Shown: positions 7,775-59,747 of the stretch, in pieces
Layout: each line of letters opens with the position of its first letter
Numbering within the stretch: position 1 is the first letter of the stretch
Assembly (NCBI RefSeq): GCF_044647545.1
Contig: NZ_CP172818.1
Direction: 5' to 3' (one strand)
Origin: Escherichia coli
GTDB lineage: Bacteria; Pseudomonadota; Gammaproteobacteria; Enterobacterales; Enterobacteriaceae
DNA length: 64,000 nucleotides
Translations under genes and position numbers: made by a program
The notes under the pieces: generated by a model
The model's input: the letters and a program-made list of their open reading frames with translations, nothing else
Told to the model about the DNA's origin: nothing
Databases searched by the model: none

Positions 7775-7808
7775 TAAAAAAGGCGGATGATGAGTCCGCC
7801 TCTGTTTT
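7775..7808. terminator. Rho-independent terminator hairpin between convergent ybiR and ldtB
   Basis: aaaaaaggcggatgatgagtccgcctctgtttt: GC stem with flanking A-run and T-run. Confidence 0.7.
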
Positions 7809-7820
7809 ACGTTTTGACGA

Positions 7821-8741
7821 TTAATTCAGACGAACCGGCATCCCAGAACGATTTTTGATCGCTTCATCAAGAACAACCTGGTCAACATCTGGCTGACCGG
7901 TCACTGTCTGCACGCTCTTCGTCAGGGTAATTGGCACAATTTCCTGACCTTCAAACTGGGCTTCGGTGGTAGACAGCGGATTATGGACTTCAATATAACG
8001 GCTGCCGTCTGGCTCGGTGGTCGCTTTTACCGGCTCATCAATAAACTGCACGCGAGTACCGACAGGCACTTTCTCGAACAGGAATTTAATGTCTTCGTTA
8101 CGCAGACGCACACAGCCATGACTTACACGCAGGCCGATACCGAAGTTGGCGTTGGTGCCATGGATAGCGTACAGGCGACCGATGTAGAGTGCATACAGAC
8201 CCATCGGGTTATCCGGACCTGCCGGAACGACAGCCGGAAGCGGTTCGCCCGCAGCGCGGTACTCTGCGTGCATTTTGGCGGTCGGCGTCCAGGTCGGGCC
8301 TGCTTTCTTACGCTCAACTTTGGTGGTCCAGTTGATAGGCGTGTCTTTGCCTAACTGACCAATGCCGATGGGCAGCACGATAACGGTGTTGCTGCCTTTC
8401 GGATAGTAATAGAGACGCATCTCTGCGCTGTTAATGACAATGCCTTCATGAACGGTATCCGGCAGGATCAGCTGCTGCGGAATGTTCAGTACAGTACCGC
8501 CTTTCGGCAGGAAGGTATCCACACCCGGGTTAGCTTCCATCATGTTGGAAAGACCCATCTGGTACTCGGCGGCAAAATACTCCAGCGGCTGAGTGTTACC
8601 TTCAGGAATGGTGATTACCTGATTCTGACCAACCAGGCGACTCCCGTCGGTTGGCAGAGGATAAGTTACCGCAGAGGCGGTACTGCAAAAGCCGACAACA
8701 GCGAAGGCCGCTGCGAATAATGTTTTCAATTTCATATTCAT
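7821..8741 (-). CDS. ldtB: L,D-transpeptidase (YkuD domain; anchors Lpp to peptidoglycan)
   Basis: 306-aa ORF with signal peptide; catalytic region ...SHGCVRL... is visible; matches YbiS/LdtB. Confidence 0.9.
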
Positions 8742-10552: not shown

Positions 10553-10559
10553 CTGTTGA

Positions 10560-11202
10560 TCTCGTTTCCCAGATCCAGCAGCTGCTGAGGTTGTCATAAA
10601 ACAGGCCGAAGCTAAACGTCATTGCGGCGGGTGATGGCTAATGGAATGTGTTGTACAGCGGGTCAGTACTCACGGCGTTGTAGCCCATCGCGTCGAGGTT
10701 ACGCATCTCGTAACGTTTACCGTTGCGTTGCAGGTCGCCGGCTTTATCTCCGAGGCCATAAAAGCGTTCATCTTTACGACGGCTCTGATAGTGCGCCACA
10801 CCGTCACCGTGGGCATTCAGCAGATAAGCGCTGGTCGGTCGGTCATTCACTAACGGCAGCCATTTCGTCTTCGTTGTTACTATAGTGCCACTCCAGCCAC
10901 AGCGGCTGGTGAACGGTGGACCAGTGACTCGGTGGCGATAACCACGGCGTTGTTGTGCTGGTTCAGGTTCATGCGGGCAGGCCAGCCGCTGGACATTTTG
11001 CCGGCCGCGCCCTTCCCGATGGCACATCCTGCTGGAGCAATGCTCCAGGTGCGATCCAGCGCCAGCTCGCCTTTGCGTTTTAACAGCACGCGGAACAGAA
11101 TTCCAGCACGTACAGACGCAATACGCCCGCCATCGACCAGCAGTTCAACGTGGTGGGCAGACTGTTTGAGGTCCAGTTTTTCAGCGTTTCGACGTTGCAC
11201 AT
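10560..11202 (-). pseudogene. Remnant of a glycoside hydrolase family 31 gene (alpha-glucosidase/alpha-xylosidase-like): 5' portion only, frameshifted and truncated at the ybiT junction
   Basis: Minus-strand fragments carry GH31 N-terminal-region signatures (...LDLKQSAHHVELLVDGGRIASV...; ...ERFYGLGDKAGDLQRNGKRYEMRNLDAMGY...), spread over at least two frames, and only about 210 codons remain of a family that is normally about 700-800 aa. Confidence 0.55.
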
Positions 11203-11207
11203 CACTC

Positions 11208-12445
11208 TCAGGCGCGTTTTGCGCGACGTTCAGCAATAAAGGTGACCAGGAAGAAAGCGCCAATCAGGTCAAAGAAGCCCATGGCGATAAACAGGGCTTA
11301 AAGCCGATTTTGTCAGCAGTAACCCCGATAATCAGGGAGAAACAGGAAACTTGCTATCGACGCGGCAGAACCGCGCATGCCGTTACAGTGGCCATCTGAC
11401 CTTTGTCGAGGATTCCACTACTAATGCGCTAAGCATGCAGGAGATGATCTGGTCAACCGAAGCCGCCTATGGAAGATAAGGACGATGGCGATATGGGTTA
11501 TCCAGAAAGGCCATCACCGCCAGCGAAACCATCAGGAATGCGCCACTGACCGATCTATGCGCAATGGAGTTCACACTGACTCAGCCCAAACAGGCGGGTG
11601 TAAAGTTTGGTCAGATAGCCGCTGGCAATACTGCCAAGATCAGCGGCGAAGGAACGGCAACCAGGCGAAAGAGTGCGATCTGCTTCAGGTCGATGCCATA
11701 GGCATCTGGACAGGTATAGCGGAACCCAGAAACTCATCACCGCCCACGCCGGTTCTGCCATAAAGGCTGGGATAGTGATACCGTAAAAGCGTTTATTTTT
11801 GCCCACGGTTTTCAGTGCGGTCAGAAAGGGTAACTTGACCGGGGAGCTTCGTTATCCTGGCGGAGCAACCAGCTTGGCTTCGCTGAAGGTCAGGATGCTT
11901 ATCCGGGTTGCGATAAAACCCACCACAGCACCACCCACAGCATCGCCAGGATGCCAGTGGCATAAATGCGCCCTGCCAGCGAATGAAGCGTGGGCAAAAT
12001 AGATAATCGGTGGGGCCAGCATGGCACCGATGGAGTCTACGTCTGCCCAGCGGCGATCGGGCGTTGCGATTTTGGAAACCATTCACCTCATAGTTTTGGG
12101 GTTTGCCGGGGTGGCCGCGGCTTCCGCACCGCCCGATAAAGAAGCGCAACAGCGCCAGATGTACCCAGTTTCCCGCCCCCGCATGCATCAGACAGGCCAG
12201 CGCCCACAGCCCCTGTGCAGATCAGAAGCCCAGTTTGAGGCCAATGACGTCAATGAGCCACCGCATAACGGTTGAAATAGGGTATAGGCGAGTTGGAAAG
12301 CACCTACAATCCAGGAATATTGTTTTGTGCAATCCCCAGGCTGCTTTTCAACTCGGCGTACACCCAGCGAATTACGTGTGATGTAGTTGACAGTAACACC
12401 GAGCAAAAAAAGGACCAGCATCCACCAACGCAGATTTTTGAACAC
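11208..12445 (-). pseudogene. Decayed MFS transporter gene (N-terminus resembles ExuT/DgoT-type anion:cation symporters), multiple frameshifts
   Basis: ORF 12188..12445 begins MFKNLRWWMLVLFLLGVTVNYITRN (MFS N-terminal TM1 pattern); a C-terminal piece ...ALFIAMGFFDLIGAFFLVTFIAERRAKRA ends at a stop at 11210..11208; the body is broken into ORFs under 135 aa in different frames. Confidence 0.5.
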
Positions 12446-12769
12446 CGGCGTGGTTTACTGGCAGTCATATCAATCGATACCCACTGATATGCACTCCACA
12501 GAATGGTATAGGGGGGCGGCAACGTCAGACGGAGTTGTCACACCACTTTTAACCTTTTGATAAATAAAGTCTTTATTGTCTGTTTTTCCATTGTTCTTGT
12601 ACTGGAAGTTGTTGTCACATTTTTACAGTAAGAGACACTAAAAGCGAAAAAGAAAGCGGGTTTTGTGCACGTTTTTCCATGCGGCCCATACATTACTGAA
12701 ATGGATTTAATGCCAGACAGAATGGGCTTTTTTTGCTCATGAAAATTCTGTCATTTCCGAATTAGAGGA

Positions 12770-13800
12770 CATCAGAAATCGGCAAAGAGCTTAAATTGCC
12801 GATATCGCCGCACGTACCGGATTATCGCCGATACGGTTTCGCGGGTGCTGCTGGCAAAGCGAATACCAGTGCACGCGCTCGCGAACAGGCGCTGGCCTGC
12901 GCGTGAGTTGGGCGCGATGGATGGCATGGCAGCAGGTCATGTTGCTGAATACAACTCATCATTTTGCGCCGCAACGCGCGTTTGACCAACGATCTGATAT
13001 CTTTTATTACCTGGTGTGATCCAGCATCAGCAAAGCGTTATCGCCCGCATGAAGTGCGGCTGCGTTACTGCGTGTTAAGGTAGTTCTACAGCTGATCCCT
13101 GGCGTGATCTGGCGGCATGAATGAAGCAGATACGCAGGCGGCGATCCTGCTGGGGATCGACGATCCGCACATCCATGATCTGGCCGCCGATCGCTAAGCC
13201 TTGCGCTGATCGACTGCTGGTGATGAACGAATGCGCCTCCCGACGATTGCGCCGGACCATCGGTTAATCGGCGTGTCTGCCGCCCGCTATCTGTTTGAAA
13301 TGGGTCACCGGGAGGTGATGAACGTTATGTGCCTGCGCTCGGCCACACTATGGAGCAGCGGTTTGCAGGGATCAAAGAATCATGGCGTCAGCATAATCTG
13401 GCCTTTCACCATGACCGTCATTTGCTGAATATCAGCAGTTTTCTCAGCGCTAAAGAAGCGGAAGAAGGTCGGAGCGCGGCCTGATGCCGCCAATGGCAAT
13501 ACGTTGCCGACGGCGTTTCTGGTCGGCGGGGATTTTTATGGCGGCGGGAACGGTAAATGCGCTACATCGTCGTGGTCTGCGCGTACCACAGGATGTCTCG
13601 GTGATGAGTATCGATGGTCTTCAATCTTGCGGCAATCGAGGATGTTCCCGACGGCTGTGACGTGCCACGCGATCAGCTAAGGGTTAAGTGGTGCAAATGT
13701 TGCAACAGCGGCTGATTCGCCGGATGTCTGCGGTGGGCTCGCTGCTGCTGCACGGACGATTAGCGGTGCGGACGCGCGGCGGTTGCCCAGGAAAAGGGAA
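12770..13800 (+). pseudogene. Decayed LacI-family transcriptional regulator gene, multiple frameshifts
   Basis: HTH-like IADIAARTGLSP continues in another frame as DTVSRVLLAK...ARELG; the C-terminal region contains ...GLRVPQDVSVMSIDG..., typical of LacI/GalR effector domains, but split across frames with stops. Confidence 0.5.
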
Positions 13801-13833
13801 CACCGCCGTGGAACGGGAAGGGCTGTACGACAA

Positions 13834-15102
13834 TCATTCCATTCCCAGCGCTCGCTTACCGTGAATGTTGAGGTCGGCAAGCGTAAAGCGTCCTTCCCAG
13901 TTTGTTTCATAGTCCTCGCGCGGGAAGTCGCCCGGCGATGCGCCTTTTTCCAGTGCGGCCTTCACCTTGTGCGCGTAGGCAAGATTTTTCTCGCACATCG
14001 GTGCCGCAGGAATGTACATCACGTTGCCCCAACCCTGTTGATTTTCAACGGGGGCAACGGAATGGATGACGTCGCAGTGCCACCAGACGGAGTCTCCGGC
14101 TTCGAGTTGTGGAATGCTGGTTAATGCCTCAATCAACAGTGGATGCCATTGCTCTGATACCGGCAACACTCTTCCGGGCGCTACGCCGCACAGTTCATCC
14201 TCCGGCACATCATCAAGCAGCGGACGTAACAGCACGTACGCCATGGCTTCAGGAATGGGCACGACGTGCAGCAGTCCCTGACCAGGCAGCATATCAGAGA
14301 GCGCTGTCCAGCCCTGGAATGTCCGAAACACGGAACATTTGGTGGTGTTGTCCACCGTGTACTCTTCAACTTCTGTACGATGTGCCGCATGCCAGGGATC
14401 ATATTGCGCCAGATTGCCATTAAAGACGTTGGCGAAAACGCGCTGATACGCTGGAAGCAGCCAGCGTTCCAGTGCCCCGGAGTCGGTATGCGCTCCGAGA
14501 CCTTTGGAGGCCGTTCCGGGCGGACGGCGGCGGATACGGTCAGGGTAGATGACGCTCACATCCGGGTTAAACCATTGCTTTCCATCACTTTCAAATGTCC
14601 ACAGACGATTGAGAAACGACTGCGCATTCGCCATTTCTTCACTCTGGCGGGCCTGCATTTGCGCCTGCGACCAGTAGATGGGGTAAATCTCGGGACGTGA
14701 AGCGCTGAGCGTCCCGAAGAAATTATCGCCGGGGCCTTTGTAGACCTCATCAAAGCGGTTGCGGTCCAGATAGTCCAGCATCGACTGATCCCAGCCTAGC
14801 GCTTGTTCGCGGGGGAAATGGCCTTTTATCACCGCACAACCGCGACGTTTAATCTGTTCGCGTTGCTCTGCAGTAACATGACCTGCTTTGATATCGGCAT
14901 AAGACAGCACCGGCCAGACTGCATCGCCCTGTGCTTTGAGTGCGTTGATTTCAGCCACTCGCGTGGCAATGTCATCGCTTAGCTGATTAAAGATCTGCTG
15001 GACGTCGCCAAGCTGCGCCCGCAGCGCGTGCTTCATCTGACGGATAGCTGCTTTGTGATCGGCAGGCAATGTGTTGCTGGTAAAAGTAGAAGCCATAACC
15101 AC
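13834..15102 (-). CDS. ybiU: DUF1479 family protein
   Basis: 422-aa intact ORF matching YbiU; the true start may be a few codons inside (MASTFTS...). Confidence 0.9.
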   Translation of the reverse strand: MVMASTFTSNTLPADHKAAIRQMKHALRAQLGDVQQIFNQLSDDIATRVAEINALKAQGDAVWPVLSYADIKAGHVTAEQREQIKRRGCAVIKGHFPREQALGWDQSMLDYLDRNRFDEVYKGPGDNFFGTLSASRPEIYPIYWSQAQMQARQSEEMANAQSFLNRLWTFESDGKQWFNPDVSVIYPDRIRRRPPGTASKGLGAHTDSGALERWLLPAYQRVFANVFNGNLAQYDPWHAAHRTEVEEYTVDNTTKCSVFRTFQGWTALSDMLPGQGLLHVVPIPEAMAYVLLRPLLDDVPEDELCGVAPGRVLPVSEQWHPLLIEALTSIPQLEAGDSVWWHCDVIHSVAPVENQQGWGNVMYIPAAPMCEKNLAYAHKVKAALEKGASPGDFPREDYETNWEGRFTLADLNIHGKRALGME

Positions 15103-15247: not shown

Positions 15248-16063
15248 TCAGCTGTTAAAAGGGGATCTGTTATCCAGCACAGCCTGAATCACGTTCAGCG
15301 CGCCTTCATGATTATTATCATCGGTAGCATAACGGGCGATTTGTTTAATGTTTTCCGCAGCATTGCCCATCGCAAAGGAATAACGCGCCATTTTCAGCAT
15401 CTCCGCATCGTTACCGCTGTCGCCAATCGCTACCACATTTTGCGGTGACAGATCCCAGCGTTTCAGTAACCGCGAAATACCGTTTGCTTTATGTAGACCG
15501 GGAATAATCAGGTCGATAAAGCCAAAACCACTGGTGACGGGTTTCATAATGCCATCCAGCGCTATGTGCAGTTTGTCGATCACTAACGGGATTTGTTCAT
15601 CCGGCAGGTTGAGCGAAAACTTGAACAGTACGTCGTCAATCTCCTGATAATCTTTTACAGGTTTCAGGCGATGGTAGTGTTTTGCCATCAGTGCGACGAA
15701 TGCTTCGGGGGCATTTTCGCTGACATATGCACTTTGCAGACCGCAAGCGACAAAATTGAGTTGCTTATCTTTTAGCAACTCGCCAATAACAATCCGCGAT
15801 TCATGTCGGGTCAGTTCGCCGTGGAACAACTGCTTGCCATGTTCGTAAACCAGTGCGCCGTTTTCCGCGACAAAAGAGATCTCATCCTTTAGCTCAGGAA
15901 AGAACGAAATAAGCTGGTAATACTGATTACCGCTGGCGACAACGAACTCAATGCCGCGCTTTTTCAGTTCCTGATATTGCGCCATAAAACGTGGTTGGTT
16001 GTACGTTTTGGCGTCGTTAAGAAAAGTACCGTCCATGTCTGTGACGATAACTTTTACGCTCAT
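15248..16063 (-). CDS. ybiV: HAD-superfamily sugar phosphatase (Cof subfamily)
   Basis: 271-aa ORF with the HAD motif I (VTDMDGTFL); matches YbiV/SupH. Confidence 0.9.
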
Positions 16064-16208
16064 AGGTGTGCTCCTGGCTCGAAAATGAAACCGTAACAGT
16101 GTAATAACAATGTGACGCAGAGCACAAATTATATTTCGAATGAAAGCGAGGCTGAAATTGATGATGTGAATGATTTAGCCCGGCGACGACGACGCCGGGC
16201 TGAGGAGA

Positions 16209-18641
16209 TTACAGCATATGTTCAGTACGGGCGATGATATCGTCCTGAGCGTCTGGAGAGAGCGCGGTGAAGAAGGCGGAATAGCCCGCGACACGCACTA
16301 CCAGATCGCGGTACTGATCCGGATGTTTTTTCGCTTCCAGCAGCGTTTCGCGGGAAACGATGTTGTACTGAATATGCCAGCCTTTATGCACTTCAAAGAA
16401 GGTGCGTAGCAGGATCATCAGTTTCTGCTTGTCAGATTCGTTCTCCAGCGTTGCCGGATTCAGTTTCTGGTTGAGCAACACGCCGCCGAGAATCGCGGCC
16501 GTAGGCAGTTTACCCACCGAGCCAATGACCGCAGTAGGGCCAAGATGATCAGTACCGGAGGCCGGACTAGCTCCTTCTGCCAGCGGGGTATGCGCTTTAC
16601 GTCCGTCCGGCGTTGCCATCGTCTGCGCGCCAAAGGGTACGTTAGCGGAGATAGATGACGTACCCGCGTAATAATTGCCGCCAACCGGACCACGACCATA
16701 GCGCGGGTTATGGTACTGTTTTAGTTCGTCGATATAGGTCTGATAAGCGCGAGCCAGCAGCGTATCGACAGTATCATCGTCGTTGCCGTACTTAGGCGCA
16801 CCGTTAATCAGCCGCTGACGCAGCTGCTCGTGAGTCAGGCCGTCGAAGTCATCCGCCAGTGCGGCAGCCAGCTGTTGCTGACCAATCGCGCCCTGTTCAA
16901 ATACCAGTTTCTTCACTGCCGCCAGGCTGTTGCCGAGGTTAGCAATGCCGACCTGCAGGCCAGAAACCCAGTCATATTTCGCGCCGCCTTGCTTGATACT
17001 TTTCGCTCGCTCAATACAGTCATCCACCAGCGCCGAGCAGAGAATATCGTGTACGTTCTCTTCCAGCATGGTGTCGACGACATATTCGATTTCGATTGAT
17101 TTACGCGTGTAGTAACGGATTTGCGTATCCCATGCGTCCATTACTTCATCGAAGTTGTTGAAGTTACCCGCTGACAACGCTTTTTCTTGTGGCAGGAACA
17201 CTTTGCCGCTGGTGGCATCACGACCGCCTTCCAGCGCCGCCAGCATCACGCGGGCGAAGTTGATAAAGCTCATGCCGGTACAGCGATAGCCCCATTTGCC
17301 ACCGACGGCGGTTTCGATACAACCAATCGCTGCGTAGTCGTAAGCGTCCTGCGGTTCAATACCGAGTTTAATAAATTCCGGGATGACGATTTCATCGTTG
17401 TTGAACGCCGGCATCCCGAAACCACAGCGGATCACCTGAACACAGGCATCGAGGAAATCGTTACTCATACCCGCATGGTAACGCACGCTGAGGTTAGGCT
17501 GAGTCGAACGCAGGCGACCGCAGGATTCGAGGATCGCATAAGAGAGTGGATTTACCGCGTCCATCGGTTGACCATCAACCAGATTTTGCCCGCCAATGGT
17601 GACGTTCTGATACAGCGGACTTCCCGCAGAGGCTTTTGAGTGTGAGCCGGAGCGGATTTTGTTCACTTCCAGCAATTTCAACCAGCAGCTATGCAGCATC
17701 TCGATGGCGTGTTCGCGATCCAGTGTCTGGTTCAGTTCAACGTCACGGCGATAGTATGGATAGAGATACTGGTCCATACGACCAAAAGATACTGAGTGAC
17801 CGTTAGATTCGATCTGCAATATCAACTGGATGAAGTAACACAGTTGCAGCGCCTGCCAGAAAGTCTGCGGCGGTTGGTGGGCGATAAGATCGCAGTTTTC
17901 TGCCATCGCCAGCAGTTCATCGCGACGGCTTTCGCGGGTTTCGGTCGTGGCCATTTCACGCGCCAGGGCAGCGAAACGTTCAATGTGTTCACTGACTGCC
18001 ACCAGCACGATATCAATCGCTTTCAGGAATTGCTCGCCGTGCAGATCTTCCAGTACCGTCAGATTGATGCGCGAGCGACGTTCCGCCACTTTCTCACGCA
18101 GACCATCAAGCCCTTTTTCCAGCAGTAGCGGGAAATTCACCGCCAGGTGCGCATCGCCGGAGGTCATATTGCCCTCCGCTTTAATGATGCCGGTCGCCAG
18201 CAGACCTTTTTGCTCATCGGTAAACATGCCGTAGCAGCGATCCTGTACCGTCTGACCGCGCCACCACGGGCACACTTCATGCAGAACACGTTTGTTCTCC
18301 TCGCTCACCGCAAAACCAGCACCCGGACGATCTGCCAGATCATCAATCTCTTTTTCGATCCACGAGACGGTATATTCCGGGAAGATCGGCGCGGCGCGAA
18401 CCTCGCTTGCCTGGTTGCCGATGATCAACTCATCGTGCTTGATCCAGATGGTGCGATTCGCCAGGTGATGCGCCAGTGCCAGCGCGCGACGTACCGGGAT
18501 CGGCTTATCGAGATGTTGTTGATACATCTCGGTATAGTGCTGCGCGCGCTCGGTACAGACTGGTGGTTTCACAATATGCACCAGCGCATTTTTGTGCGCT
18601 TTAATGCGGTCGCTGAGCGTGTCCAGTTTCAGTGTGGTCAT
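16209..18641 (-). CDS. ybiW: Glycyl radical enzyme, pyruvate formate-lyase-like, substrate unknown
   Basis: 810-aa ORF with a C-terminal glycyl-radical motif (...VVRVAGYSAFF...) and a PFL-like fold; matches YbiW. Confidence 0.9.
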   Translation of the reverse strand: MTTLKLDTLSDRIKAHKNALVHIVKPPVCTERAQHYTEMYQQHLDKPIPVRRALALAHHLANRTIWIKHDELIIGNQASEVRAAPIFPEYTVSWIEKEIDDLADRPGAGFAVSEENKRVLHEVCPWWRGQTVQDRCYGMFTDEQKGLLATGIIKAEGNMTSGDAHLAVNFPLLLEKGLDGLREKVAERRSRINLTVLEDLHGEQFLKAIDIVLVAVSEHIERFAALAREMATTETRESRRDELLAMAENCDLIAHQPPQTFWQALQLCYFIQLILQIESNGHSVSFGRMDQYLYPYYRRDVELNQTLDREHAIEMLHSCWLKLLEVNKIRSGSHSKASAGSPLYQNVTIGGQNLVDGQPMDAVNPLSYAILESCGRLRSTQPNLSVRYHAGMSNDFLDACVQVIRCGFGMPAFNNDEIVIPEFIKLGIEPQDAYDYAAIGCIETAVGGKWGYRCTGMSFINFARVMLAALEGGRDATSGKVFLPQEKALSAGNFNNFDEVMDAWDTQIRYYTRKSIEIEYVVDTMLEENVHDILCSALVDDCIERAKSIKQGGAKYDWVSGLQVGIANLGNSLAAVKKLVFEQGAIGQQQLAAALADDFDGLTHEQLRQRLINGAPKYGNDDDTVDTLLARAYQTYIDELKQYHNPRYGRGPVGGNYYAGTSSISANVPFGAQTMATPDGRKAHTPLAEGASPASGTDHLGPTAVIGSVGKLPTAAILGGVLLNQKLNPATLENESDKQKLMILLRTFFEVHKGWHIQYNIVSRETLLEAKKHPDQYRDLVVRVAGYSAFFTALSPDAQDDIIARTEHML

Positions 18642-18646
18642 GGTTG

Positions 18647-19573
18647 TTATCCTCGTAAGGTCGCGGTTAACCCTTTCTGGCAGGCGTACTGCTGGGCAAA
18701 GTCGAGCAGTTCTGGCGCATCAAGCGGTTTTTCCGGGGCGTCATAGGGCAGATTAAGTAAGTGATATTTGTTGATGCCCAGCGTGTGGTAGGGCAGAAAA
18801 TGAATTTCGCCAACGTGCAGCTCGTCGGCGGCAAAATCGGTAATGGCTTTTACAGAGGTTTCGTCGGCATTAAAGCCCTGAATCAGCGGTACGCGGATAA
18901 TGATTTTTTTGCCCGCTGAGGCGAGTTTTTTCAGGTTATCCAGCACTCTGGCGGCGTTACCGTCGGTCCACTGTTTAAACGGCGCGTCGGCAACGTGTTT
19001 TAAATCGGCAAGAAACAGATCGATATAGGGCAGAGAAGGGGCGATATATTTCCACGGCACATGCAGACAGGTTTCTACCGCAGTATGAATGCCAGCCTCG
19101 TGGCTGGCTTGCAGTAGCGCCATCGCCATTTCCGGCTGCATAAACGGTTCACCGCCAGAAAGCGTTAAGCCGCCGCCGCTGCGATCGTAAAACGGTTTAT
19201 CGCGCAGAACGGTCGCCATGATCTCCTCAACGCTTTTCACTTCACCACACACGGTTAACGCCTGTGTCGGGCAGCAGTCGGTTAGCGCCGTCAGATGCTC
19301 CGGGGTTAACTTTTCCCGATGAATAAGCAAACCATTCAACGCGCGCTCAATCACGTCCGGCGCGGCCTTAGCGCACAGCTCACAGCCTTCCAGGCACAGA
19401 CGTGGGTCATACAGCAGATCCTGCGTGCGGGCGCGGCTTTCCGGGTTCTGACACCAGCGGCAGCCCAGCGAACAGCCTTTAAGAAATACGACCGTGCGGA
19501 TACCGGGGCCATCATGGGTCGAGTAGCGCTGAATATTGAAAATCATAGTTGCCTCTCTGTTTCGTTCAAACAT
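18647..19573 (-). CDS. ybiY: Glycyl radical enzyme activating enzyme (radical SAM)
   Basis: ORF contains the radical SAM CxxxCxxC cluster ([11 protein letters not shown]) and further Cys-rich ferredoxin-like motifs; lies immediately downstream of ybiW; an alternative start at MIFNIQ (19546) is possible. Confidence 0.85.
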
Positions 19574-19676: not shown

Positions 19677-20339
19677 ATGGAACTGTATCTGGATACTTCA
19701 GACGTTGTTGCGGTGAAGGCGCTGTCACGTATTTTTCCGCTGGCGGGTGTGACCACTAACCCAAGCATTATCGCCGCGGGTAAAAAACCGCTGGAGGTTG
19801 TGCTTCCGCAACTTCACGAGGCGATGGGCGGTCAGGGGCGTCTGTTTGCCCAGGTAATGGCTACCACTGCCGAAGGGATGGTGAATGACGCGCTTAAGCT
19901 GCGTTCTATTATTGCGGATATCGTGGTGAAAGTTCCGGTGACCGCCGAGGGGCTGGCAGCGATTAAGATGTTAAAAGCGGAAGGGATTCCGACGCTGGGA
20001 ACCGCGGTATATGGCGCAGCACAAGGGCTACTGTCGGCGCTGGCAGGTGCGGAATATGTTGCGCCTTACGTTAATCGTATTGATGCTCAGGGCGGTAGCG
20101 GTATTCAGACTGTGACCGACTTACACCAGTTATTGAAAATGCATGCGCCGCAGGCGAAAGTGTTAGCCGCGAGTTTCAAAACCCCGCGTCAGGCGCTGGA
20201 CTGCTTACTGGCAGGATGTGAATCAATTACTCTGCCACTGGATGTGGCACAACAGATGATTAGCTATCCGGCGGTTGATGCCGCTGTGGCGAAGTTTGAG
20301 CAGGACTGGCAGGGAGCGTTTGGCAGAACGTCGATTTAA
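19677..20339 (+). CDS. fsaA: Fructose-6-phosphate aldolase 1
   Basis: ORF 19605..20339; the recognised FsaA N-terminus [32 protein letters not shown] begins at 19677 (220 aa). Confidence 0.9.
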
Positions 20340-20491
20340 CCGGACGTTCTGCATCCTCATCAATTGCTGATAACGTTGTGGAGTGCACCAAGCTTCCGCG
20401 CCTGAAATTCGCCCGAACTAGGCAGATAAGGTTACGCCGATTGGGTCTGAGAAAATTATCTGCCGCGACTTATCAGGCCTGGGGCTGGCAG

Positions 20492-31445: not shown

Positions 31446-32774
31446 ATGTCCAGAATCAATAAGTTCGTACTTACAGTCAGTCTGCTGATTTTTATCATGA
31501 TTTCAGCAGTTGCCTGCGGGATCTACACTCAAATGGTAAAGGAACGGGTGTATGGCCTGAAACAGTCCGTTATTGATACTGCTTTTGCGGTGGCAAATAT
31601 TGCTGAATATCGGCGTAGTGTGGCAATTGATCTGATCAACACGCTAAATCCTACGGAGGAACAGCTGTTGGTTGGCTTACGCACAGCTTACGCCGACTCG
31701 CTTTCACCCTCTTATTTGTACGATGTCGGTCCTTATCTGATTTCCAGTGACGAATGTATTCAGGTAAAGGAGTTCGAGAAAAATTATTGTGCAGATATTA
31801 TGCAGGTTGTGAAGTATCGACATGTCAAAAATACAGGGTTTATCTCTTTTGATGGTAAAACCTTCGTCTATTACCTCTATCCGGTAACTCACAATCGTAG
31901 TCTGATATTTTTGCTTGGTCTGGAACGTTTTTCTTTACTGTCAAAATCGCTGGCGATGGATAGCGAGAACCTGATGTTCTCCCTGTTTAAGAACGGTAAA
32001 CCGGTGACCGGTGATGAATATAACGCTAAAAACGCCATCTTCACCGTTTCGGAAGCAATGGAGCACTTCTCCTATTTGCCGACCGGATTGTACGTATTTG
32101 CGTATAAAAAAGACGTTTATTTTCAGGTATGTACATTGATTATTTTCTTTGCCGCATTGGTGGCAGTGATATCGGGTGCCAGTTGCCTCTATCTGGTACG
32201 CAGAGTGATTAATCGTGGTATTGTGGAGAAAGAAGCCATTATTAATAACCATTTTGAACGCGTCCTGGATGGCGGGCTTTTCTTTTCGGCTGCCGATGTC
32301 AAAAAACTCTACAGTATGTATAACTCGGCATTCCTGGACGATCTGACCAAAGCAATGGGCAGAAAATCCTTTGATGAAGATTTAAAAGCCCTGCCGGAAA
32401 AAGGCGGCTATTTGTGCCTGTTTGACGTCGATAAATTCAAAAACATTAACGACACCTTCGGTCATTTGCTGGGCGATGAAGTGTTGATGAAAGTGGTGAA
32501 AATCCTTAAATCACAGATCCCGGTAGATAAAGGTAAAGTCTACCGCTTCGGCGGTGACGAATTTGCGGTGATTTATACTGGCGGCACGCTGGAAGAGTTG
32601 CTATCGATTCTAAAAGAAATCGTTCATTTCCAGGTGGGAAGCATTAATTTAAGTACCAGTATCGGTGTAGCGCATTCAAATGAATGTCCTACCGTCGAAC
32701 GCTTGAAAATGCTGGCGGATGAGCGGCTGTATAAGAGTAAGAAAAACGGCAGGGCACAGATTAGCTGGCAGTAA
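31446..32774 (+). CDS. dgcI: Membrane-anchored diguanylate cyclase (GGDEF domain)
   Basis: 442-aa ORF with a GGDEF active-site motif ([12 protein letters not shown]); matches YliF/DgcI. Confidence 0.9.
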
Positions 32775-32779
32775 TTAGA

Positions 32780-33700
32780 ATATTATACCCCTTAATCAAG
32801 GGTACTAATGAATTGGTAAATCATTTCAAACATTTTACTTTGCAAAAACTTCCGGCCCTTTTATTCCAATGTATTCAAAAAACGCAATGCCGGCCCCTTC
32901 TTTTTTTTTCTTTTCCTCCCCTTTTCTAAAACTTTTTTTTTTAAATTCCCTTTTGTTCCAAAACCGGGTGGATGCCCCGTCCGGCGGGCCTTTTTCTCTT
33001 CTCCCCCCTTTGTTTTTGTTTTGCTTATGGGCCGCACTCTCGGGTTTGTGACTTAAGGGGAAGGACAAACTTCCAAACAACAAACAGACCCACATTTCTT
33101 TCCTTTCTTTTCAATTTAATTTTTTTTTTTTTCTCCCAAAAAAAAAACAAATTCAAAAAAAATCTTTTTTTATTGCTAAAGGCCAGAAATGCATTTGCCA
33201 TTTTTTTGTAGGCCGCCAGTTCATCATCTTCGATTTCTTTGGTTCCTTTACTACTTAGACCACTCTTGGACCAACCATCATAAAAAAACACATGATTTGC
33301 TGATTTAAAAAAAATAATTTTTTTGCCTCCCCCTCTTTCTTTTTGAGGGGGAAATTTTTTTTAAGAACACCCCAACCTAAATCACCCTCCCATATGCCCT
33401 CCATCACTTCTCCAGCGCAAGCCATAAAAATTTTATATTAAAAACCAAGTTTTTTTTGTTTTGCGGAATCTTTCCCTTATACACACCCATACACCCATCT
33501 TTTGTTATTGTTTATATTATAAAAATTATTCTTTTTTAAAAAAAATTGAAAAAAAAAATTTATTTTGGAAAAAAAAAGGAGGGTTGCCCGAAGGTTTTTT
33601 TTTTTTTGATTTATGGGGGGGATTTTTGGGAAGGAAAGGAAAGGGGGGAGGGAAGGAGAGGAAGAAAAAAAAAAAATTAATTTAGATTTCTGCCTTAAGA
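32780..33700. other. Low-complexity, homopolymer-rich non-coding tract between convergent dgcI and rimO; origin unclear (possible assembly artefact or foreign/synthetic insert)
   Basis: Runs of at least 10 T, at least 10 A and 7 G, plus GA-rich and CT-rich blocks (e.g. ggaaggaaaggaaaggggggagggaaggagagg); only short Lys/Phe/Gly-rich ORFs; unlike the surrounding E. coli sequence. Confidence 0.6.
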
Positions 33701-40667: not shown

Positions 40668-41900
40668 ATGCAAAATAAATTAGCTTCCGGTGCCAGGCTT
40701 GGACGTCAGGCGTTACTTTTCCCTCTCTGTCTGGTGCTTTACGAATTTTCAACCTATATCGGCAACGATATGATTCAACCCGGTATGTTGGCGGTGGTGG
40801 AACAATATCAGGCGGGCATTGATTGGGTTCCTACTTCGATGACCGCGTATCTGGCGGGCGGGATGTTTTTACAATGGCTCCTGGGGCCGCTGTCGGATCG
40901 TATTGGCCGCCGTCCGGTGATGCTGGCGGGAGTGGTGTGGTTTATCGTCACCTGTCTGGCAATATTACTGGCGCAAAACATTGAACAATTCACCCTGTTG
41001 CGCTTCTTGCAGGGCATAAGCCTCTGTTTCATTGGCGCTGTGGGATACGCCGCAATTCAGGAATCCTTCGAAGAGGCGGTTTGTATCAAGATCACCGCGC
41101 TGATGGCGAACGTGGCGCTGATTGCTCCGCTACTTGGTCCGCTGGTGGGCGCGGCGTGGATCCATGTGCTGCCCTGGGAGGGGATGTTTGTCTTGTTTGC
41201 CGCATTGGCAGCGATCTCCTTTTTCGGTCTGCAACGAGCCATGCCTGAAACCGCCACGCGTATAGGCGAGAAACTGTCGCTGAAAGAACTCGGTCGTGAC
41301 TATAAGCTGGTGCTGAAGAACGGTCGCTTTGTGGCGGGGGCGCTGGCGCTGGGATTCGTTAGCCTGCCGTTGTTGGCGTGGATCGCCCAGTCGCCGATTA
41401 TCATTATTACCGGTGAGCAGTTGAGCAGCTATGAATATGGCTTGCTGCAAGTGCCTATTTTTGGGGCGTTAATTGCGGGTAACTTGCTGTTAGCGCGTCT
41501 GACCTCGCGCCGCACCGTACGTTCGCTGATTATTATGGGCGGCTGGCCGATTATGATTGGTCTGTTGGTCGCTGCTGCGGCAACGGTTATCTCATCGCAC
41601 GCGTATTTATGGATGACCGCCGGGTTAAGTATTTATGCTTTCGGTATTGGTCTGGCGAATGCGGGACTGGTGCGATTAACCCTGTTTGCCAGCGATATGA
41701 GTAAAGGTACGGTTTCTGCGGCGATGGGGATGCTGCAAATGCTGATCTTTACCGTCGGTATTGAAATCAGCAAACATGCCTGGCTGAACGGGGGCAACGG
41801 ACTGTTTAATCTCTTCAACCTTGTCAACGGCATTTTGTGGCTGTTGCTGATGGTTATCTTTTTAAAAGATAAACAGATGGGAAATTCGCACGAAGGGTAA
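40668..41900 (+). CDS. mdfA: Multidrug efflux MFS transporter MdfA (Cmr)
   Basis: ORF 40638..41900; the recognised start is [20 protein letters not shown] at 40668 (410 aa); 12-TM MFS protein. Confidence 0.95.
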
Positions 41901-41940
41901 AAAAATGCCTGATTGCTTTGTGCGATCAGGCATTCTCAAA

Positions 41941-42225
41941 TTAATGGTGATGGTCGTCAATCTGGTGTTCGATAACCATCCCTTCACCTACGCTGGCAAG
42001 ATGGCGAACATAAGGATGCGGGCGGTAAGCCGGAGCTGGCGCAGGAGCCACATAGACGGTTTGCGGCACAGTCGCGACGCTGACCGCTTGTGGAACACTG
42101 ACTGAATCAGGAACCACAACCACTTTGTATCCACTCGGCACATCGACGGTGACACTTTGCGCCATCGCCACACCAGTAAAGCCCATTAAAAGCGCGCCCA
42201 ACAGTAGACAATTTTTCATAATCAT
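41941..42225 (-). CDS. ybjH: Small secreted protein of unknown function (DUF1471-like)
   Basis: 94-aa ORF with a signal peptide (MIMKNCLLLGALLMGFTGVAMA); position matches ybjH. Confidence 0.8.
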   Translation of the reverse strand: MIMKNCLLLGALLMGFTGVAMAQSVTVDVPSGYKVVVVPDSVSVPQAVSVATVPQTVYVAPAPAPAYRPHPYVRHLASVGEGMVIEHQIDDHHH

Positions 42226-42310
42226 TTCGCCTGAAATAATGCAGCGGGTTAATTTCCGCGAATTATGCAGCCTTCATTCAGGCATTGTGTTGCCGGGCGT
42301 GCTGCCGTTT

Positions 42311-43126
42311 TTATTGGTTAAATGGCGCTTCGTGTTTAAGAACTTTATCGATCACATCCAGTACGCCTTCACGGTTATTGGAGCCTGCCCGGTATTTTGC
42401 TGCTGCGACGACCGCGCTGCCGGCATTTTCCATTGCAAAACTAAAGCCTGCCTGACGCAGCATCTCAATATCGTTACCGCCATCGCCAAAGACCACCACT
42501 TCGCTGTCGTCTATTCCCCATAATTTCTGCAGTTGGCGAAGGCCATTGGCTTTATGTACGCCGGGGATAATCAGATCGATGCTGCCGTTGCCGGTGTGGA
42601 CCGGCACCATAATATCGCCGATGGCCTCATGTAATGCTTTTTGTACTTGTGGAATCAGTTCATCAGAAAGATTCAGGCCAAACTTAAAGAAGATATCTTC
42701 TAAGTTGTCAAAGTTATCGACGTATTCCAGACGGTGATAATACATTTCCGCCACCGTTTTCATGGCATCGTCATATTTTTTGAGGGTATAGGCGCTATTT
42801 TTTCCGCAGGCAATAATTTCCACTTCCGGGCGCGTCAGCAAATGTTCCACGACAGTAGCAAACGCATCTTTCGACAGCTCGCCATTAAAAACATCTTTGC
42901 CTTCGCTCACTACCCAGCCGCCGTTTTCAGCCACAAAGGCAATTTCATTAGCAATTTCAGGGAAGAAAGAGATCAACTGATAATATTGATTCCCGCTGGC
43001 GACCACAAAGCGAATGCCTTGTGCTTTCATTTGCTGATACTGAGCCATAAACCGCTCACGGTTATAGGTTTTTTGATCGCTTAAGAAAGTACCATCCATG
43101 TCTACCGCAATTAATTTAATGCTCAT
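42311..43126 (-). CDS. ybjI: HAD-superfamily phosphatase (Cof subfamily)
   Basis: ORF with the HAD motif I (IAVDMDGTFL); paralogous to ybiV in this window; matches YbjI. Confidence 0.9.
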   Translation of the reverse strand: MSIKLIAVDMDGTFLSDQKTYNRERFMAQYQQMKAQGIRFVVASGNQYYQLISFFPEIANEIAFVAENGGWVVSEGKDVFNGELSKDAFATVVEHLLTRPEVEIIACGKNSAYTLKKYDDAMKTVAEMYYHRLEYVDNFDNLEDIFFKFGLNLSDELIPQVQKALHEAIGDIMVPVHTGNGSIDLIIPGVHKANGLRQLQKLWGIDDSEVVVFGDGGNDIEMLRQAGFSFAMENAGSAVVAAAKYRAGSNNREGVLDVIDKVLKHEAPFNQ

Positions 43127-44334
43127 CAACTATTCTCCATCGCCGTCTGCGTTTTGGTATCGGGTTTGGCGACGGCTTTCGCGACAATAGCCGCGAGAAT
43201 AACCAGCGCCAGTACAACCATCATTGCACTACGTAATCCATAATGTTCGCCGAGATAGCCCAGCAGCGGCGGCCCGACGAGGAAAGCCAGATAACCGGTC
43301 GTAGCTACCACGCTGACGCGGGTTGGTGCATCGGGGCCGGTATCGCTGGCGGCAGAAATGGTCAGAGGGAAGCCCAGCGAGGCACCCAGTCCCCAAAGTA
43401 CAACAGACACCCCAGCGACCCAGGCGCTATCGACAAAAATAATCAGGCCAATACCCAACGCTCCCATTAGTGCACTGGCCCGAACCACGGCAACGCGACT
43501 GTAACGGTCGATGAACCAACCGCCGGTAAAGCGTCCAACAGTCATCCCCAGGGTAAAACCGGCATAAATCAGCGAGCCGGAAGTAGGGCTAAAACCGTGA
43601 CCGTCAACCATTAATAAGGGTAACCAGTCGTTGGCAGAACCTTCGGCAAAGGCCATCGCCAGCACCACAACACCAATCAGCAGCAACTGGATATCCCGAT
43701 AAAAAGGTACGCCTTTTTCACCATGCTGGGTGCCATCGGCAGCATTTTTGCCCGTACCGTCAGGGATTGCCTGAATGGCGATATAAATAGGCGCGATGCC
43801 TACCAGCGCCGCCAATAAAATGTGCACCGTTGCCGGAACGCCAAAGGCCGTCAGTGCCATCCCGACACCAGCGCCTGCCAGCGTGCCCAGGCTATAAAAA
43901 CCGTGCATCATCGGCAAAACCGTCTTATTCATTTCTCGCTCAACGGCAGCACCTTCAACGTTTATCGCCACTTCCGCAGAACCAAAACTTGCCCCAAAGA
44001 CGCCGAGACCAACCGCGAAGAGCAGGGGCGATGTCAGCCAGAGTGCCAGGCTTAGTATCATCATCCCAATCAATGCGCAGGACATCGTCACAAGGATGAC
44101 ATTACGCGTCCCAAAGCGTTTCACTAACCACGCCGAGCAGAGAATACCGCTCATCGAACCGATCGACAGACCAAAGAGAACACCGCCCATTTCAGCGATC
44201 GAGACAGAGAGAATATCGCGGATAGCAGGCGTACGGGTTGCCCAGGACGCCATTAACAGGCCTGGCAAAAAGAAGAACATAAACAGCGCCCAGGTTCGGC
44301 GTTTCAATGCATTACGTGAAGAATTTACGGTCAT
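43126..44334 (-). CDS. ybjJ: Putative MFS transporter
   Basis: Track ORF 43126..44397; the likely true start is [21 protein letters not shown] at 44334; polytopic membrane protein; matches YbjJ. Confidence 0.85.
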
Positions 44335-44417
44335 AGACCACGTCAAAATAAGAAGAGGGAAGACAACATTAGCAAGATTGTGTACATTTGTACACAATTG
44401 TAGAGAGAGGAAATGAC

Positions 44418-44954
44418 ATGCGTCGCGCTAACGATCCGCAACGGCGAGAAAAAATTATCCAGGCCACGCTGGAGGCGGTGAAACTTTATGGAATACATGC
44501 TGTTACACACCGCAAAATTGCTACCCTTGCCGGGGTACCGTTGGGATCGATGACTTACTATTTTTCAGGAATTGATGAGTTGTTGCTGGAGGCGTTCAGC
44601 CGTTTTACTGAGATCATGTCCCGGCAATATCAGGCATTTTTTAGCGATGTTAGTGATGCTCCGGGCGCATGCCAGGCTATCACCGATATGATCTACAGCT
44701 CACAGGTTGCAACGCCGGATAACATGGAGCTGATGTACCAGCTCTACGCGCTGGCTAGCCGAAAACCGCTATTAAAAACGGTAATGCAAAACTGGATGCA
44801 GCGCAGTCAGCAAACGCTCGAACAATGGTTTGAACCCGGAACCGCCCGCGCGCTTGATGCGTTTATTGAGGGGATGACGCTGCATTTTGTCACCGACCGT
44901 AAGCCGCTATCGCGCGAGGAGATTTTGAGGATGGTTGAGAGGGTTGCAGGGTAG
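44418..44954 (+). CDS. rcdA: TetR-family transcriptional regulator RcdA
   Basis: Track ORF 44388..44954; the recognised start is [19 protein letters not shown] at 44418; TetR-type HTH. Confidence 0.9.
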
Positions 44955-44973
44955 TAGATAAATTTCAGGCAAC

Positions 44974-45052
44974 AAAAAACCCACCAACCTTGAACCGAAA
45001 TGGCGGGGTTGATGGGCTCCACAAAATGGGGACATCAAAGAAAAGCAGTGGC
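44974..45052 (-). ncRNA. rybB: RybB small RNA (sigmaE-dependent, Hfq-binding; represses outer membrane protein mRNAs)
   Basis: The reverse complement reads gccactgcttttctttgatgtccccattttgtggagcccatcaaccccgccatttcggttcaaggttggtgggtttttt, matching RybB as I recall it, including the terminator hairpin and U-tail; located between rcdA and ybjL as in K-12. Confidence 0.85.
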
Positions 45053-56668: not shown

Positions 56669-57400
56669 TTACTGTGGGAACCACTGGTCATTGATTTTCT
56701 GATATGTACCGTCAGCTTTAATTGCTGCCAGCGCATTATTCAGTTTTTCCAGCAGAGCTTTGTTATCCGGACGTACAGCGATACCTAGGCCGGTGCCGAA
56801 GTATTGCGGATCGGTCACTTTTTCAGTCGCAACGCCCAGTTGCGGATTGGTTTTCAGCCATTCGTTTACCACTGCGGTGTCACCAAATACGCCATCAATA
56901 CGGCCATTTTTCAGATCGATAAAGGCATTCTGATAACTGTCATAGGAGACAGTTTTCACTTCCGGGTGCTGATCCTGAATATATTTCTGGTGCGTGGTGC
57001 CGTTTTCCATCCCAATACGTTTGCCTTTCAGATCGGCAAACGTTTTGTAGGTATCTTTTTTGGCAATCACGACGGCTGAGTTTTCGTAGTAGGGCGTGGT
57101 AAACGATACCTGTTTGCTACGCTCCGGCGTGATATCCATTCCGGAGATTACGGCGTCATATTTTCTGAATTTCAGTGACGGGATCAGGCTGTCGAACGCG
57201 TGATTCGTAAAAGTACATTCTGCCTGCATTTGTTTGCACAAGGCTTTTGCCAGATCGATATCAAAGCCGACAATCTCATTATTAGCACCTATAGATTCAA
57301 AGGGTGGATAGGTGGCTGAAACGCCAAAATTGATTTTCTCTGCGGCAGAAGCACCGAAAGTAAAAGAAGCAAGTAAAGCGGCAAGAACTAACTTTTTCAT
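56669..57400 (-). CDS. artJ: Arginine ABC transporter periplasmic binding protein ArtJ
   Basis: The track ORF extends to 57451; the recognised start is MKKLVLAALLASFTFGASA at 57400 (243 aa). Confidence 0.95.
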   Translation of the reverse strand: MKKLVLAALLASFTFGASAAEKINFGVSATYPPFESIGANNEIVGFDIDLAKALCKQMQAECTFTNHAFDSLIPSLKFRKYDAVISGMDITPERSKQVSFTTPYYENSAVVIAKKDTYKTFADLKGKRIGMENGTTHQKYIQDQHPEVKTVSYDSYQNAFIDLKNGRIDGVFGDTAVVNEWLKTNPQLGVATEKVTDPQYFGTGLGIAVRPDNKALLEKLNNALAAIKADGTYQKINDQWFPQ

Positions 57401-57574
57401 GATGGAACTCCCGTCTGTCAATCTTATGATTTTTGGCCGTGTCTGCGGCATGGGATAACAATGCCATCAAGTGAATTTATATGCAATAAATATGATTAAA
57501 TAATTTAAATGAAATAAAAAAAGACGGACAGCTTAGTGAGTTGCCCGTCTTCATTATAAGAATTTATGCACTAT

Positions 57575-59015: not shown

Positions 59016-59747
59016 TTACTTCTGGAACCATTTGTTGTAGATGGTTTCGTAAGTGCCATCTTTCTTCACTTTTTCCAGCGCAGTGTTGAGTTTCTGCTGC
59101 AGTTCAGTGTTGCCCTGACGTACCGCGATGCCGAGACCAGTACCGAAGTAATCTTTATCGGTCACTTTATCGCCCACTGCCGCCAGTTTCGGGTTGTCTT
59201 TCAGCCACTCGGTGACCACTGCGGTGTCACCGAATACGCTGTCGATACGACCGTTTTGCAGATCCAGTTTTGCGTTCTGGTAGCTGTCATACGGAACGGT
59301 GGTGATTTCCGGGTGCTTATCCATAATGAACTTCTGGTGTGTCGTCCCGTTCTGAACGCCGACTTTTTTGCCTTTCAGCTGATCAACACTGGTGTATTTA
59401 CCCTGCTGACCCACAAACAGGGCAGAGTTGTCATAGTAAGGGGTGGTAAACAGCACCTGCTTTTCACGTTCTGGGGTGATATCCATCCCGGCCATCACCG
59501 CTTCCACGCGACGGAATTTCAGGCTTGGGATCAGGCTGTCAAATGCCTGGTTGGAGAAAGTGCAGGTTGCATCAATCTCTTTACACAGCGCTTGTGCCAG
59601 GTCGACGTCAAAACCAACGATCTGGTTGTTTGCATCAATCGATTCAAACGGAGGATAGGAGGCTTCGGTAGCAAAACGAATAGTTTCGGCAGCTGTGGCG
59701 GAAAGACTAAAACCTGCAATTAACGCGGCAATCAGAACTTTTTTCAT
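59016..59747 (-). CDS. artI: Arginine-binding periplasmic protein ArtI
   Basis: 243-aa ORF with signal peptide; paralogue of ArtJ. Confidence 0.95.
   Translation of the reverse strand: MKKVLIAALIAGFSLSATAAETIRFATEASYPPFESIDANNQIVGFDVDLAQALCKEIDATCTFSNQAFDSLIPSLKFRRVEAVMAGMDITPEREKQVLFTTPYYDNSALFVGQQGKYTSVDQLKGKKVGVQNGTTHQKFIMDKHPEITTVPYDSYQNAKLDLQNGRIDSVFGDTAVVTEWLKDNPKLAAVGDKVTDKDYFGTGLGIAVRQGNTELQQKLNTALEKVKKDGTYETIYNKWFQK

Follow-up and report, generated by a model that had tools for sequence, protein, structure and literature searches.

The window analysed here, a 64,000-nucleotide stretch of the Escherichia coli contig NZ_CP172818.1 (assembly GCF_044647545.1), contains ORFs for two E. 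coli genes that are already known, ybjI and ybiV, and the products of these genes are reciprocal closest paralogues in E. coli. The explanation that best accounts for the data overall, and that we regard as very probable, is that these known genes encode phosphatases acting by the HAD mechanism and that they arose by a duplication within their own lineage before the radiation of the Enterobacteriaceae. As the genes, their family, the crystal structures of YbiV and the in vitro substrates are already in the literature, the significance of the pair itself is low. The modest additions made here are the pre-radiation age of the split, the asymmetric divergence of the two copies and the locking of each copy to a different operon partner (YbjJ and YbiW, respectively). 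These could guide studies of substrate specificity and the search for a physiological substrate of YbiV in the 1,5-anhydroglucitol pathway.

Identity, family and predicted mechanism of YbjI and YbiV

The ybjI gene (bp 42311-43126, minus strand) encodes a Cof-type HAD-IIB phosphatase of 271 aa and was identified as an ORF with a 100% nucleotide match to annotated ybjI. Its start codon in RefSeq is ATG, and the ORF listing runs on to a TTG one codon upstream (bp 43129). The surrounding segment (bp 41800-44500) matches several complete E. coli chromosomes at 100% identity and, of 5,426 complete genomes of the species, 5,421 contain the ybjI segment. The second gene, ybiV (supH; bp 15248-16063, minus strand), encodes a paralogous Cof-type HAD-IIB sugar phosphatase, also of 271 aa, and was identified by its ORF, its match to TIGR00099 and its match to the K-12 protein. 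The RefSeq product names are "5-amino-6-(5-phospho-D-ribitylamino)uracil phosphatase" for ybjI and "sugar-phosphatase YbiV" for the second ORF. The first-pass annotation had assigned both names and both positions from the sequence alone, and the ORFs and the annotated E. coli chromosomes bear it out. It had also placed the paralogues within about 27 kb of each other; the start-to-start distance is 27,063 bp in the window and 26,103 bp in K-12.

The YbjI protein of the window is 99.3% identical to that of K-12 (b0844, a phosphatase for FMN and for the riboflavin intermediate 5-amino-6-(5-phospho-D-ribitylamino)uracil, or ARPP), from which it differs by two amino acids and nothing else. The K-12 gene has the same RefSeq name and likewise lies between ybjJ and ybjH/mdfA. 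This identity, the conserved synteny and a 94% bootstrap value for the clade (see below) all identify ybjI as the orthologue of b0844. YbiV is 98.9% identical to K-12 b0822. The sequence departs nowhere from the described YbjI and YbiV proteins, and the genes themselves are already known. Two plus-strand ORFs in the same region (bp 42125-42523 and bp 42734-43084) were rejected as by-products of minus-strand ybjI, as they are annotated in none of the genomes compared.

In a BLASTP comparison, YbjI and YbiV share 141 of 270 residues (52% identity, 67% positives, E-value: 1e-102, 288 bits) without a single gap, well outside what chance would give. The first-pass annotation had noted a nearly identical N-terminal motif I, where 11 of the first 15 residues match, and had proposed an overall similarity, which this alignment and the assignment of both proteins to one subfamily confirm. 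Four other E. coli proteins of the same TIGR00099/PF08282 family (Cof, YbhA, YidA and YigL of K-12) resemble the pair in length and in motifs. In contrast, they share only 21-26% identity with YbjI and YbiV (39-70 bits) and are not part of the clade formed by these two. PMC3040653 cites YbiV and YbjI among seven Cof-like phosphatases of E. coli that make up a redundant set of paralogues.

Placement in the Cof-type HAD-IIB family is based on full-length matches above the cutoff. Against TIGR00099, for which the curated cutoff is 137 bits, YbjI scores 193.2 bits and YbiV 221.0 bits, with model positions 1-256 of 256 aligned. Against PF08282, the E-values are 6e-55 (YbjI) and 1e-53 (YbiV), with positions 1-255 of 255 covered. 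All four catalytic motifs that define the HAD superfamily (I, DxDx(T/V); II, a conserved S/T; III, a conserved K; IV, (G/S)DxxxD or similar) were found in both proteins. In YbjI these are motif I (D9-M-D11-G-T13), motif II (S44, in VVASGN), motif III (K192, in HKANG) and motif IV (G214-D215-G-G-N-D219). The motifs of YbiV lie at the same positions, with GDSGND as motif IV. The catalytic motif columns are invariant between the two proteins in the alignment, and PF00702 is matched as well.

The best matches of YbjI among PDB sequences are the YbiV/SupH structures 1rlm, 1rlo, 1rlt and 2hf2 (E-value about 1e-87); the YidA structure 1rkq gives an E-value of only 7e-14. YbjI agrees with YbiV in length and in catalytic motifs, and is predicted from the alignment to have the Cof-type C2B-cap architecture as well. 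The roughly 100 residues between S44/N68 and K192 of YbjI align without gaps to the structure-solved YbiV, and YbjI would accordingly carry a C2B alpha/beta cap between motifs II and III.

HAD phosphatases use an aspartate nucleophile that forms an aspartyl-phosphate, a second aspartate as acid/base and a Mg2+ ion held by motif IV, while the cap picks the substrate. As the residues for this chemistry are present in both sequences, the same mechanism is predicted for YbjI and YbiV. Asp9 would act as the nucleophile and form the aspartyl-phosphate, Asp11 would serve as the general acid/base, Ser44 and Lys192 would bind the phosphoryl group, and Asp215 and Asp219 would hold Mg2+. The inserted cap (approximately residues 83-185) is expected to select the substrate.

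Neither YbjI nor YbiV reached the cutoff of an NCBIfam equivalog model. The second-best NCBIfam match of both is NF045966 (YcsE_rel_Pase), where YbjI scores 98.0 bits and YbiV 108.9 bits, far under the 220-bit equivalog cutoff. Firmicutes homologues of the YbjI/YbiV family also reach only 101-118 bits against this model. Bacillus subtilis YcsE, YwtE and YitU, to which the model relates, are Cof-type HAD-IIB proteins reported to hydrolyze ARPP and FMN (PMC8475336, PMC7062661). Because the NF045966 scores are so far below the cutoff, the YcsE type is a related subfamily and not that of YbjI and YbiV.

Gene neighbourhoods of the two copies

The gene for an MFS transporter, ybjJ (bp 43126-44334, minus strand; PF07690 MFS_1), lies directly upstream of ybjI, and its TGA stop codon shares one base with the ybjI ATG (TGATG). 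This 1-nt overlap fits, and suggests, co-transcription and translational coupling of ybjJ and ybjI. A scan of bp 41800-44700 found three promoter sites against 3.9 expected, a count that carries no information, and eight terminator-like sites against 3.0 expected, with no terminator-like site convincingly placed between ybjJ and ybjI. Divergent from ybjJ-ybjI is rcdA (ybjK; bp 44418-44954, plus strand), a TetR-family regulator gene identified by annotation, by TetR_N and TetR_C_31 and by its conserved position. The small ORF ybjH (bp 41941-42225, minus strand), 85 bp downstream of ybjI, encodes 94 aa with a signal-peptide-like N-terminus and matched no Pfam family. With Rfam at gathering thresholds, the sole match in the whole window was RybB (bp 44971-45049), and no structured RNAs or riboswitches were found around ybjI or ybiV.

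While ybjI is associated with an MFS transporter, ybiV is associated with a glycyl radical enzyme cluster. Upstream of ybiV are ybiW (bp 16209-18641, minus strand), encoding the glycyl radical enzyme, and ybiY (bp 18647-19546, minus strand), encoding its activating enzyme. The fructose-6-phosphate aldolase gene fsaA (bp 19677-20339, plus strand) is divergent from ybiY; both ybiY and fsaA were assigned from the annotation of L001 (coordinates +95) and from synteny. Downstream of ybiV is ybiU (bp 13834-15096, minus strand), which encodes a DUF1479/Gig2-like protein (PF07350, E-value: 1.8e-154) and was assigned from this match and from synteny. The spacer between ybiW and ybiV is 145 nt in length and contains a GC-rich hairpin that is not followed by a T-tract, and ybiV has a Shine-Dalgarno sequence of its own. 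All three of ybiV, ybiY and fsaA are under the control of YciT, which binds them (PMC8464067).

To compare these neighbourhoods across species, one genome per species was scanned and, out of 514 relatives, the 80 most similar to YbjI were kept. Among these 80 loci, the gene next upstream of ybjI is ybjJ at all 33 loci of the YbjI clade, and loci of sufficient length also show a divergent rcdA upstream, with mdfA, ybjG, deoR and dacC downstream. Within the same set, ybjH was detected in Escherichia and one Citrobacter only. In 26 of the 28 YbiV-clade loci among the best 80 of 514, ybiV is preceded by ybiY-ybiW and followed by ybiU. The other two, from Superficieibacter, are without ybiWY and fsaA, and ybiV is still found between moeB and ybiT.

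A comparison of the window with NZ_CP033850.1 gave an observation of a separate kind. From bp 2042 to bp 44984, the core genes are 100% identical save for one substitution (bp 34521), and heavy alteration is confined to three segments, each placed precisely between core genes. The first (bp 10554-13840) is a GH31/MFS/LacI island in which about 1.9 kb is missing, the remainder is about 92% identical and all frames are broken. The second is bp 20395-20460. The third (bp 32772-33688) is a RelE/HTH toxin-antitoxin pair that is 83-85% identical, again with broken frames. Together the three segments show 125 transitions versus 192 transversions and 103 small deletions versus 35 insertions, and these versions are absent from all 5,426 complete genomes of E. 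coli. Beside the perfect identity of the core they look oddly degraded; ybjI and ybiV are untouched by the alterations.

Age and origin of the probable duplication

Trees were constructed by neighbour-joining on Kimura distances, with bootstrap, from 86 sequences. They set the YbjI/YbiV family apart from Cof, YbhA, YidA and YigL with 100% bootstrap support. Among the best 80 of 514 relatives, the YbjI proteins of the Enterobacteriaceae form one clade (33 sequences, 94% bootstrap) and the YbiV proteins another (28 sequences, 100% bootstrap, or 98% with Mangrovibacter). The remainder of these 80 includes scattered single branches from Yersinia, Rouxiella, Mixta, Pantoea, Izhakiella and Endozoicomonas and eight Firmicutes sequences from Bacillus, Neobacillus, Listeria, Trichococcus, Enterococcus and Breznakia. 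Bootstrap values are only 2-18% along the backbone that joins the YbjI and YbiV clades to each other, to the Firmicutes and to the remaining Enterobacterales copies.

The identity between YbjI and YbiV within a genome is constant, at 45-52% in the 17 species with both genes, and the third codon positions of the two genes in the window are only 38.6% identical, which is saturated. Such values show no sign of gene conversion and speak against any concerted evolution, both of which were rejected, and they make the split an old one. The two clades and their sequence divergence support a split that predates the radiation of the Enterobacteriaceae.

The present arrangement is also old. Among the best 80 of 514 relatives, both genes are found on one contig and co-oriented in 12 species. 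In ten of these the spacing is 20.0, 22.6, 22.6, 23.1, 23.9, 25.3, 25.8, 26.4, 28.1 and 28.3 kb, and in Kluyvera and Pseudocitrobacter it is 43.7 and 63.7 kb. From this conserved, co-oriented spacing across species it follows that the arrangement dates back to the Enterobacteriaceae as a family. It fits an originally local duplication without proving one.

Of the "old local duplication" proposed in the first-pass annotation, the age holds, given the clades and the synteny throughout the Enterobacteriaceae and the state of the third codon positions. The local part is no more than plausible: no tandem intermediate was found at the 80 loci (best 80 of 514), the flanks are not paralogous, the deep branches of the tree have the low bootstrap values given above, and Firmicutes homologues are as close to YbjI (50%) as YbiV is. 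A local duplicate would be expected to lie adjacent or in one block, to have co-duplicated flanks or to show a tandem stage, and none of these was seen for ybjI and ybiV in the window or at the 80 loci (best 80 of 514). In the same window, artJ and artI (64% identical, 1.6 kb apart, in one gene cluster) are by contrast a textbook local pair. Proximity and co-orientation, which are suggestive, constitute the one positive line of evidence that the ybjI/ybiV duplication was local, and a local origin is plausible.

The duplication may instead have been dispersed within the lineage, with one copy inserted beside ybiW or moved there by a later rearrangement, in which case the proximity would be uninformative as to origin. 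We consider this possible but somewhat doubtful. Several features favour it. First, the genes belong to different operons and have about 20 unrelated core genes between them. Second, an all-against-all BLASTP of the window ORFs found no other paralogous pair joining the two neighbourhoods, and therefore no co-duplicated neighbour. Third, at the 80 loci (best 80 of 514) no tandem or near-tandem close copies were found within ±10 kb; the sole nearby copy among them is a Cof-type gene of Trichococcus, 1.9 kb away and only 28-30% identical. Fourth, in Mangrovibacter and Pantoea the YbiV-type copy lies away from ybiW. However, the co-oriented layout at 20-28 kb is found in most Enterobacteriaceae genera sampled, and a given pair would lie this close by chance (27 kb or less on a circle of 4.64 Mb) with a probability of about 1.2%. 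In K-12, ybhA, a third gene of the Cof type, lies 61 kb past ybiV, a hint that members of the family may be clustered in this region.

A further alternative is xenology, in which the two genes entered separately, at least one of them horizontally from a Firmicutes-like donor, so that there was no duplication in the lineage and the 27-kb spacing is a coincidence. This we judge unlikely, even though parts of the data are in line with it. Proteins of Bacillus, Listeria, Trichococcus, Enterococcus and Neobacillus share 50-52% identity with YbjI, level with YbiV, and the deep nodes of the tree are those with the low bootstrap values given above. The G+C contents of the two genes (45.8% and 46.9%) are below that of their neighbours (about 54-55%). 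The family is patchy within the Enterobacterales, and outside the Enterobacteriaceae the copies occur in unrelated contexts, those of Rouxiella on different contigs.

Other measures argue against separate entries. In four-point quartets (n=22,176), YbjI and YbiV were grouped against the Firmicutes and the MFS-linked copies of Yersiniaceae in 83% of cases, while YbjI was grouped with the Firmicutes in 2%; quartets with copies of the Rouxiella/Yersinia aldovae type or with distant Cof outgroups were split. Mean identity is 50% between the YbjI clade and the Firmicutes, 49% between the YbjI and YbiV clades and 45% between the YbiV clade and the Firmicutes, such that YbiV is closer to YbjI than to the Firmicutes proteins. 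When YbiV was compared with a collection of 5.8 billion proteins, the 120 matches listed ranged from 99% down to 60% identity. All of the named proteins among them, and hence all named relatives of at least 60% identity among the 120 listed, are from Enterobacteriaceae genera, including Salmonella, Citrobacter, Enterobacter, Kluyvera, Kosakonia, Siccibacter, Cronobacter, Franconibacter and Mangrovibacter. In addition, the chance of two independent, co-oriented insertions within 27 kb is about 1%. The quartets and the Enterobacteriaceae-only relatives of YbiV thus make a split inside the lineage of the enterobacteria more probable than two acquisitions independent of each other. An identity of 50% to Firmicutes proteins is more than vertical descent across phyla would normally leave, and implies that horizontal transfer took place at some point in the past of the family.

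Finally, the reading that the similarity reflects shared HAD catalytic motifs only, in members of distant subfamilies, has next to no probability: the identity is 52% over 270 gapless residues and 40% even through the cap, the scores against the other paralogues are far lower, and the phylogeny, which like the alignment had been proposed as a check at the outset, sets the pair apart from the four other E. coli Cof-type proteins at a node with 100% bootstrap.

Divergence of the copies and their reported functions

The divergence between YbjI and YbiV is concentrated in the cap. Identity is 70% over residues 1-82, about 40% in the cap (approximately residues 83-185) and 50% over residues 186-271. 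Between the two clades, 88 positions are at least 90% conserved with one residue common to both. A further 21 are clade-diagnostic, that is, fixed differently, with at least 90% conservation within each clade; residues 70-71, 109, 115, 118, 123, 129 and 182 are among them. Most Firmicutes sequences agree with YbjI at 11 of these 21 sites and with YbiV at 3. The stem branch leading to YbiV in the neighbour-joining tree is 0.184 (with a further 0.095 below Mangrovibacter) as compared to 0.075 for YbjI. Among orthologues the order is reversed: mean identity is 81.5% for YbiV and 73.3% for YbjI in 136 matched species pairs, and the YbiV orthologues are the more similar in 132 of the 136. From these comparisons we infer that YbiV is the derived copy, having undergone an early burst of change mostly in the cap and being now under greater constraint. 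YbjI would have retained the ancestral character, and the overall pattern would be one of neofunctionalisation.

Under the duplication that we prefer, both copies would descend from one ancestral gene that duplicated in the enterobacterial lineage prior to the radiation of the Enterobacteriaceae. This gene was probably YbjI-like and paired with an MFS transporter of the YbjJ type, and ybjI would since then have been translationally coupled to ybjJ. The other copy, ybiV, would have joined the ybiY-ybiW/fsaA (1,5-anhydroglucitol-6-phosphate) cluster, changing quickly at first, mainly in the cap, before becoming the more conserved of the two. Their spacing of about 20-28 kb and their shared orientation would have persisted from the common ancestor of the family onwards.

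The reported substrates of the two proteins also differ: those of YbjI are FMN and ARPP, while YbiV is reported as a promiscuous sugar-phosphate phosphatase. YbjI and YigB dephosphorylate both ARPP and FMN, and single deletions of ybjI or yigB do not result in riboflavin auxotrophy (PMC7017516). A passage in PMC8475336, citing Kuznetsova 2006, states that YigB and YbjI prefer FMN. According to a statement in PMC12441222 that cites Ma et al., the glycyl radical enzyme YbiW converts 1,5-anhydroglucitol-6-phosphate into 1-deoxyfructose-6-phosphate, and we hypothesize that YbiV serves this 1,5-anhydroglucitol pathway.

A broader and rather speculative proposal, to which we assign a low probability, is that the YbjJ transporter and YbjI form a "dephosphorylate and move across the membrane" module, from which YbiV departed as a copy with a cap respecialised for the ybiW/ybiY/fsaA pathway. 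In this proposal the pair, with its 1-nt overlap, occurs throughout the Enterobacteriaceae. If it is true, what YbjI does in the cell would be linked to a metabolite that is transported, beyond housekeeping in the riboflavin pathway alone. YbiV could then be, for example, a relief valve for a toxic phosphate ester in the 1,5-anhydroglucitol-6-phosphate pathway. A Yersiniaceae lineage (L070, L074 and L064) whose HAD protein is about 48% identical to YbjI carries genes for a ROK-family regulator, an MFS transporter and the HAD protein consecutively, and this transporter is 27% identical to YbjJ over 368 aa (E-value: 4e-19). As the MFS-HAD row is present in this lineage too, the pairing of transporter and phosphatase is recurrent and may be ancestral.

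Base composition and surroundings of ybjI and ybiV

Both paralogous Cof-type phosphatase genes have a G+C content clearly below that of their operon partners: ybjI (window 42311-43126, minus strand) is 45.8% G+C versus 54.8% for the MFS transporter gene ybjJ, and ybiV (15248-16063, minus strand) is 46.9% versus 54.4% for the glycyl radical enzyme gene ybiW. The whole-window value, 50.6%, is above that of either phosphatase gene. The 145-nt ybiW-ybiV spacer contains a GC-rich hairpin, GCCCGGCG-n-CGCCGGGC (window 16178-16200, minus strand), that lies 8 nt past the ybiW stop codon and is not followed by a T-tract; it might act as an attenuator, stabilise the RNA or represent a REP-like element. 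In Superficieibacter (related loci L073 and L059), ybiV is present between moeB and ybiT, while ybiW, ybiY, fsaA and ybiU are missing, and YbiV has thus been kept without the glycyl-radical cluster.

Paralogue pairs and transporter-phosphatase pairing

The ybjJ-ybjI transporter-phosphatase pairing is repeated elsewhere among the best 80 of 514 relatives. In loci from Rouxiella, Yersinia nurmii and an Enterobacterales MAG (L074, 7612-10819; L070, 7606-10825; L064, 2028-5232), a ROK-family regulator gene and then a YbjJ-like MFS transporter gene (27% identity, E-value: 4e-19) precede a divergent YbjI/YbiV-family gene. In two Trichococcus loci, a second Cof-type gene (28-30% identical; L062, 7318-8121; L069, about 7318-8103) is found 1.9 kb upstream of the family member, on the opposite strand. 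Within the window, the genes for the artJ and artI-like periplasmic binding proteins (56669-57451 and 59016-59747) are a true local paralogue pair: they are 1.6 kb apart in one cluster and their products are 64% identical. A glnH-like ORF at 255-1001 shows 30-34% identity to each.

Degraded segments and the rcdA region

Compared with E. coli NZ_CP033850.1, the window is 100% identical outside three heavily degraded accessory segments: a GH31/MFS/LacI island (10554-13840), the fsa-moeB spacer (20395-20460) and a RelE/HTH toxin-antitoxin pair (32772-33688). Core genes form the exact boundaries of all three, which retain approximately 83-93% identity to the reference and have disrupted reading frames throughout. 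Across these segments the transition/transversion ratio is 0.65 and small indels comprise 103 deletions and 35 insertions; approximately 1.9 kb is also absent from the window at 10548/10554. Not one of the 5,426 complete E. coli genomes carries the window's versions. The pattern looks unlike natural divergence; the segments may represent artificial or simulated decay.

In NZ_CP033850.1 a P2-like prophage, absent from the window, sits after the TetR-family regulator gene rcdA. No Rfam family other than RybB was detected in the window at gathering thresholds; the RybB sRNA itself (RF00110, 104 bits) is encoded directly downstream of rcdA at 44971-45049 on the minus strand.
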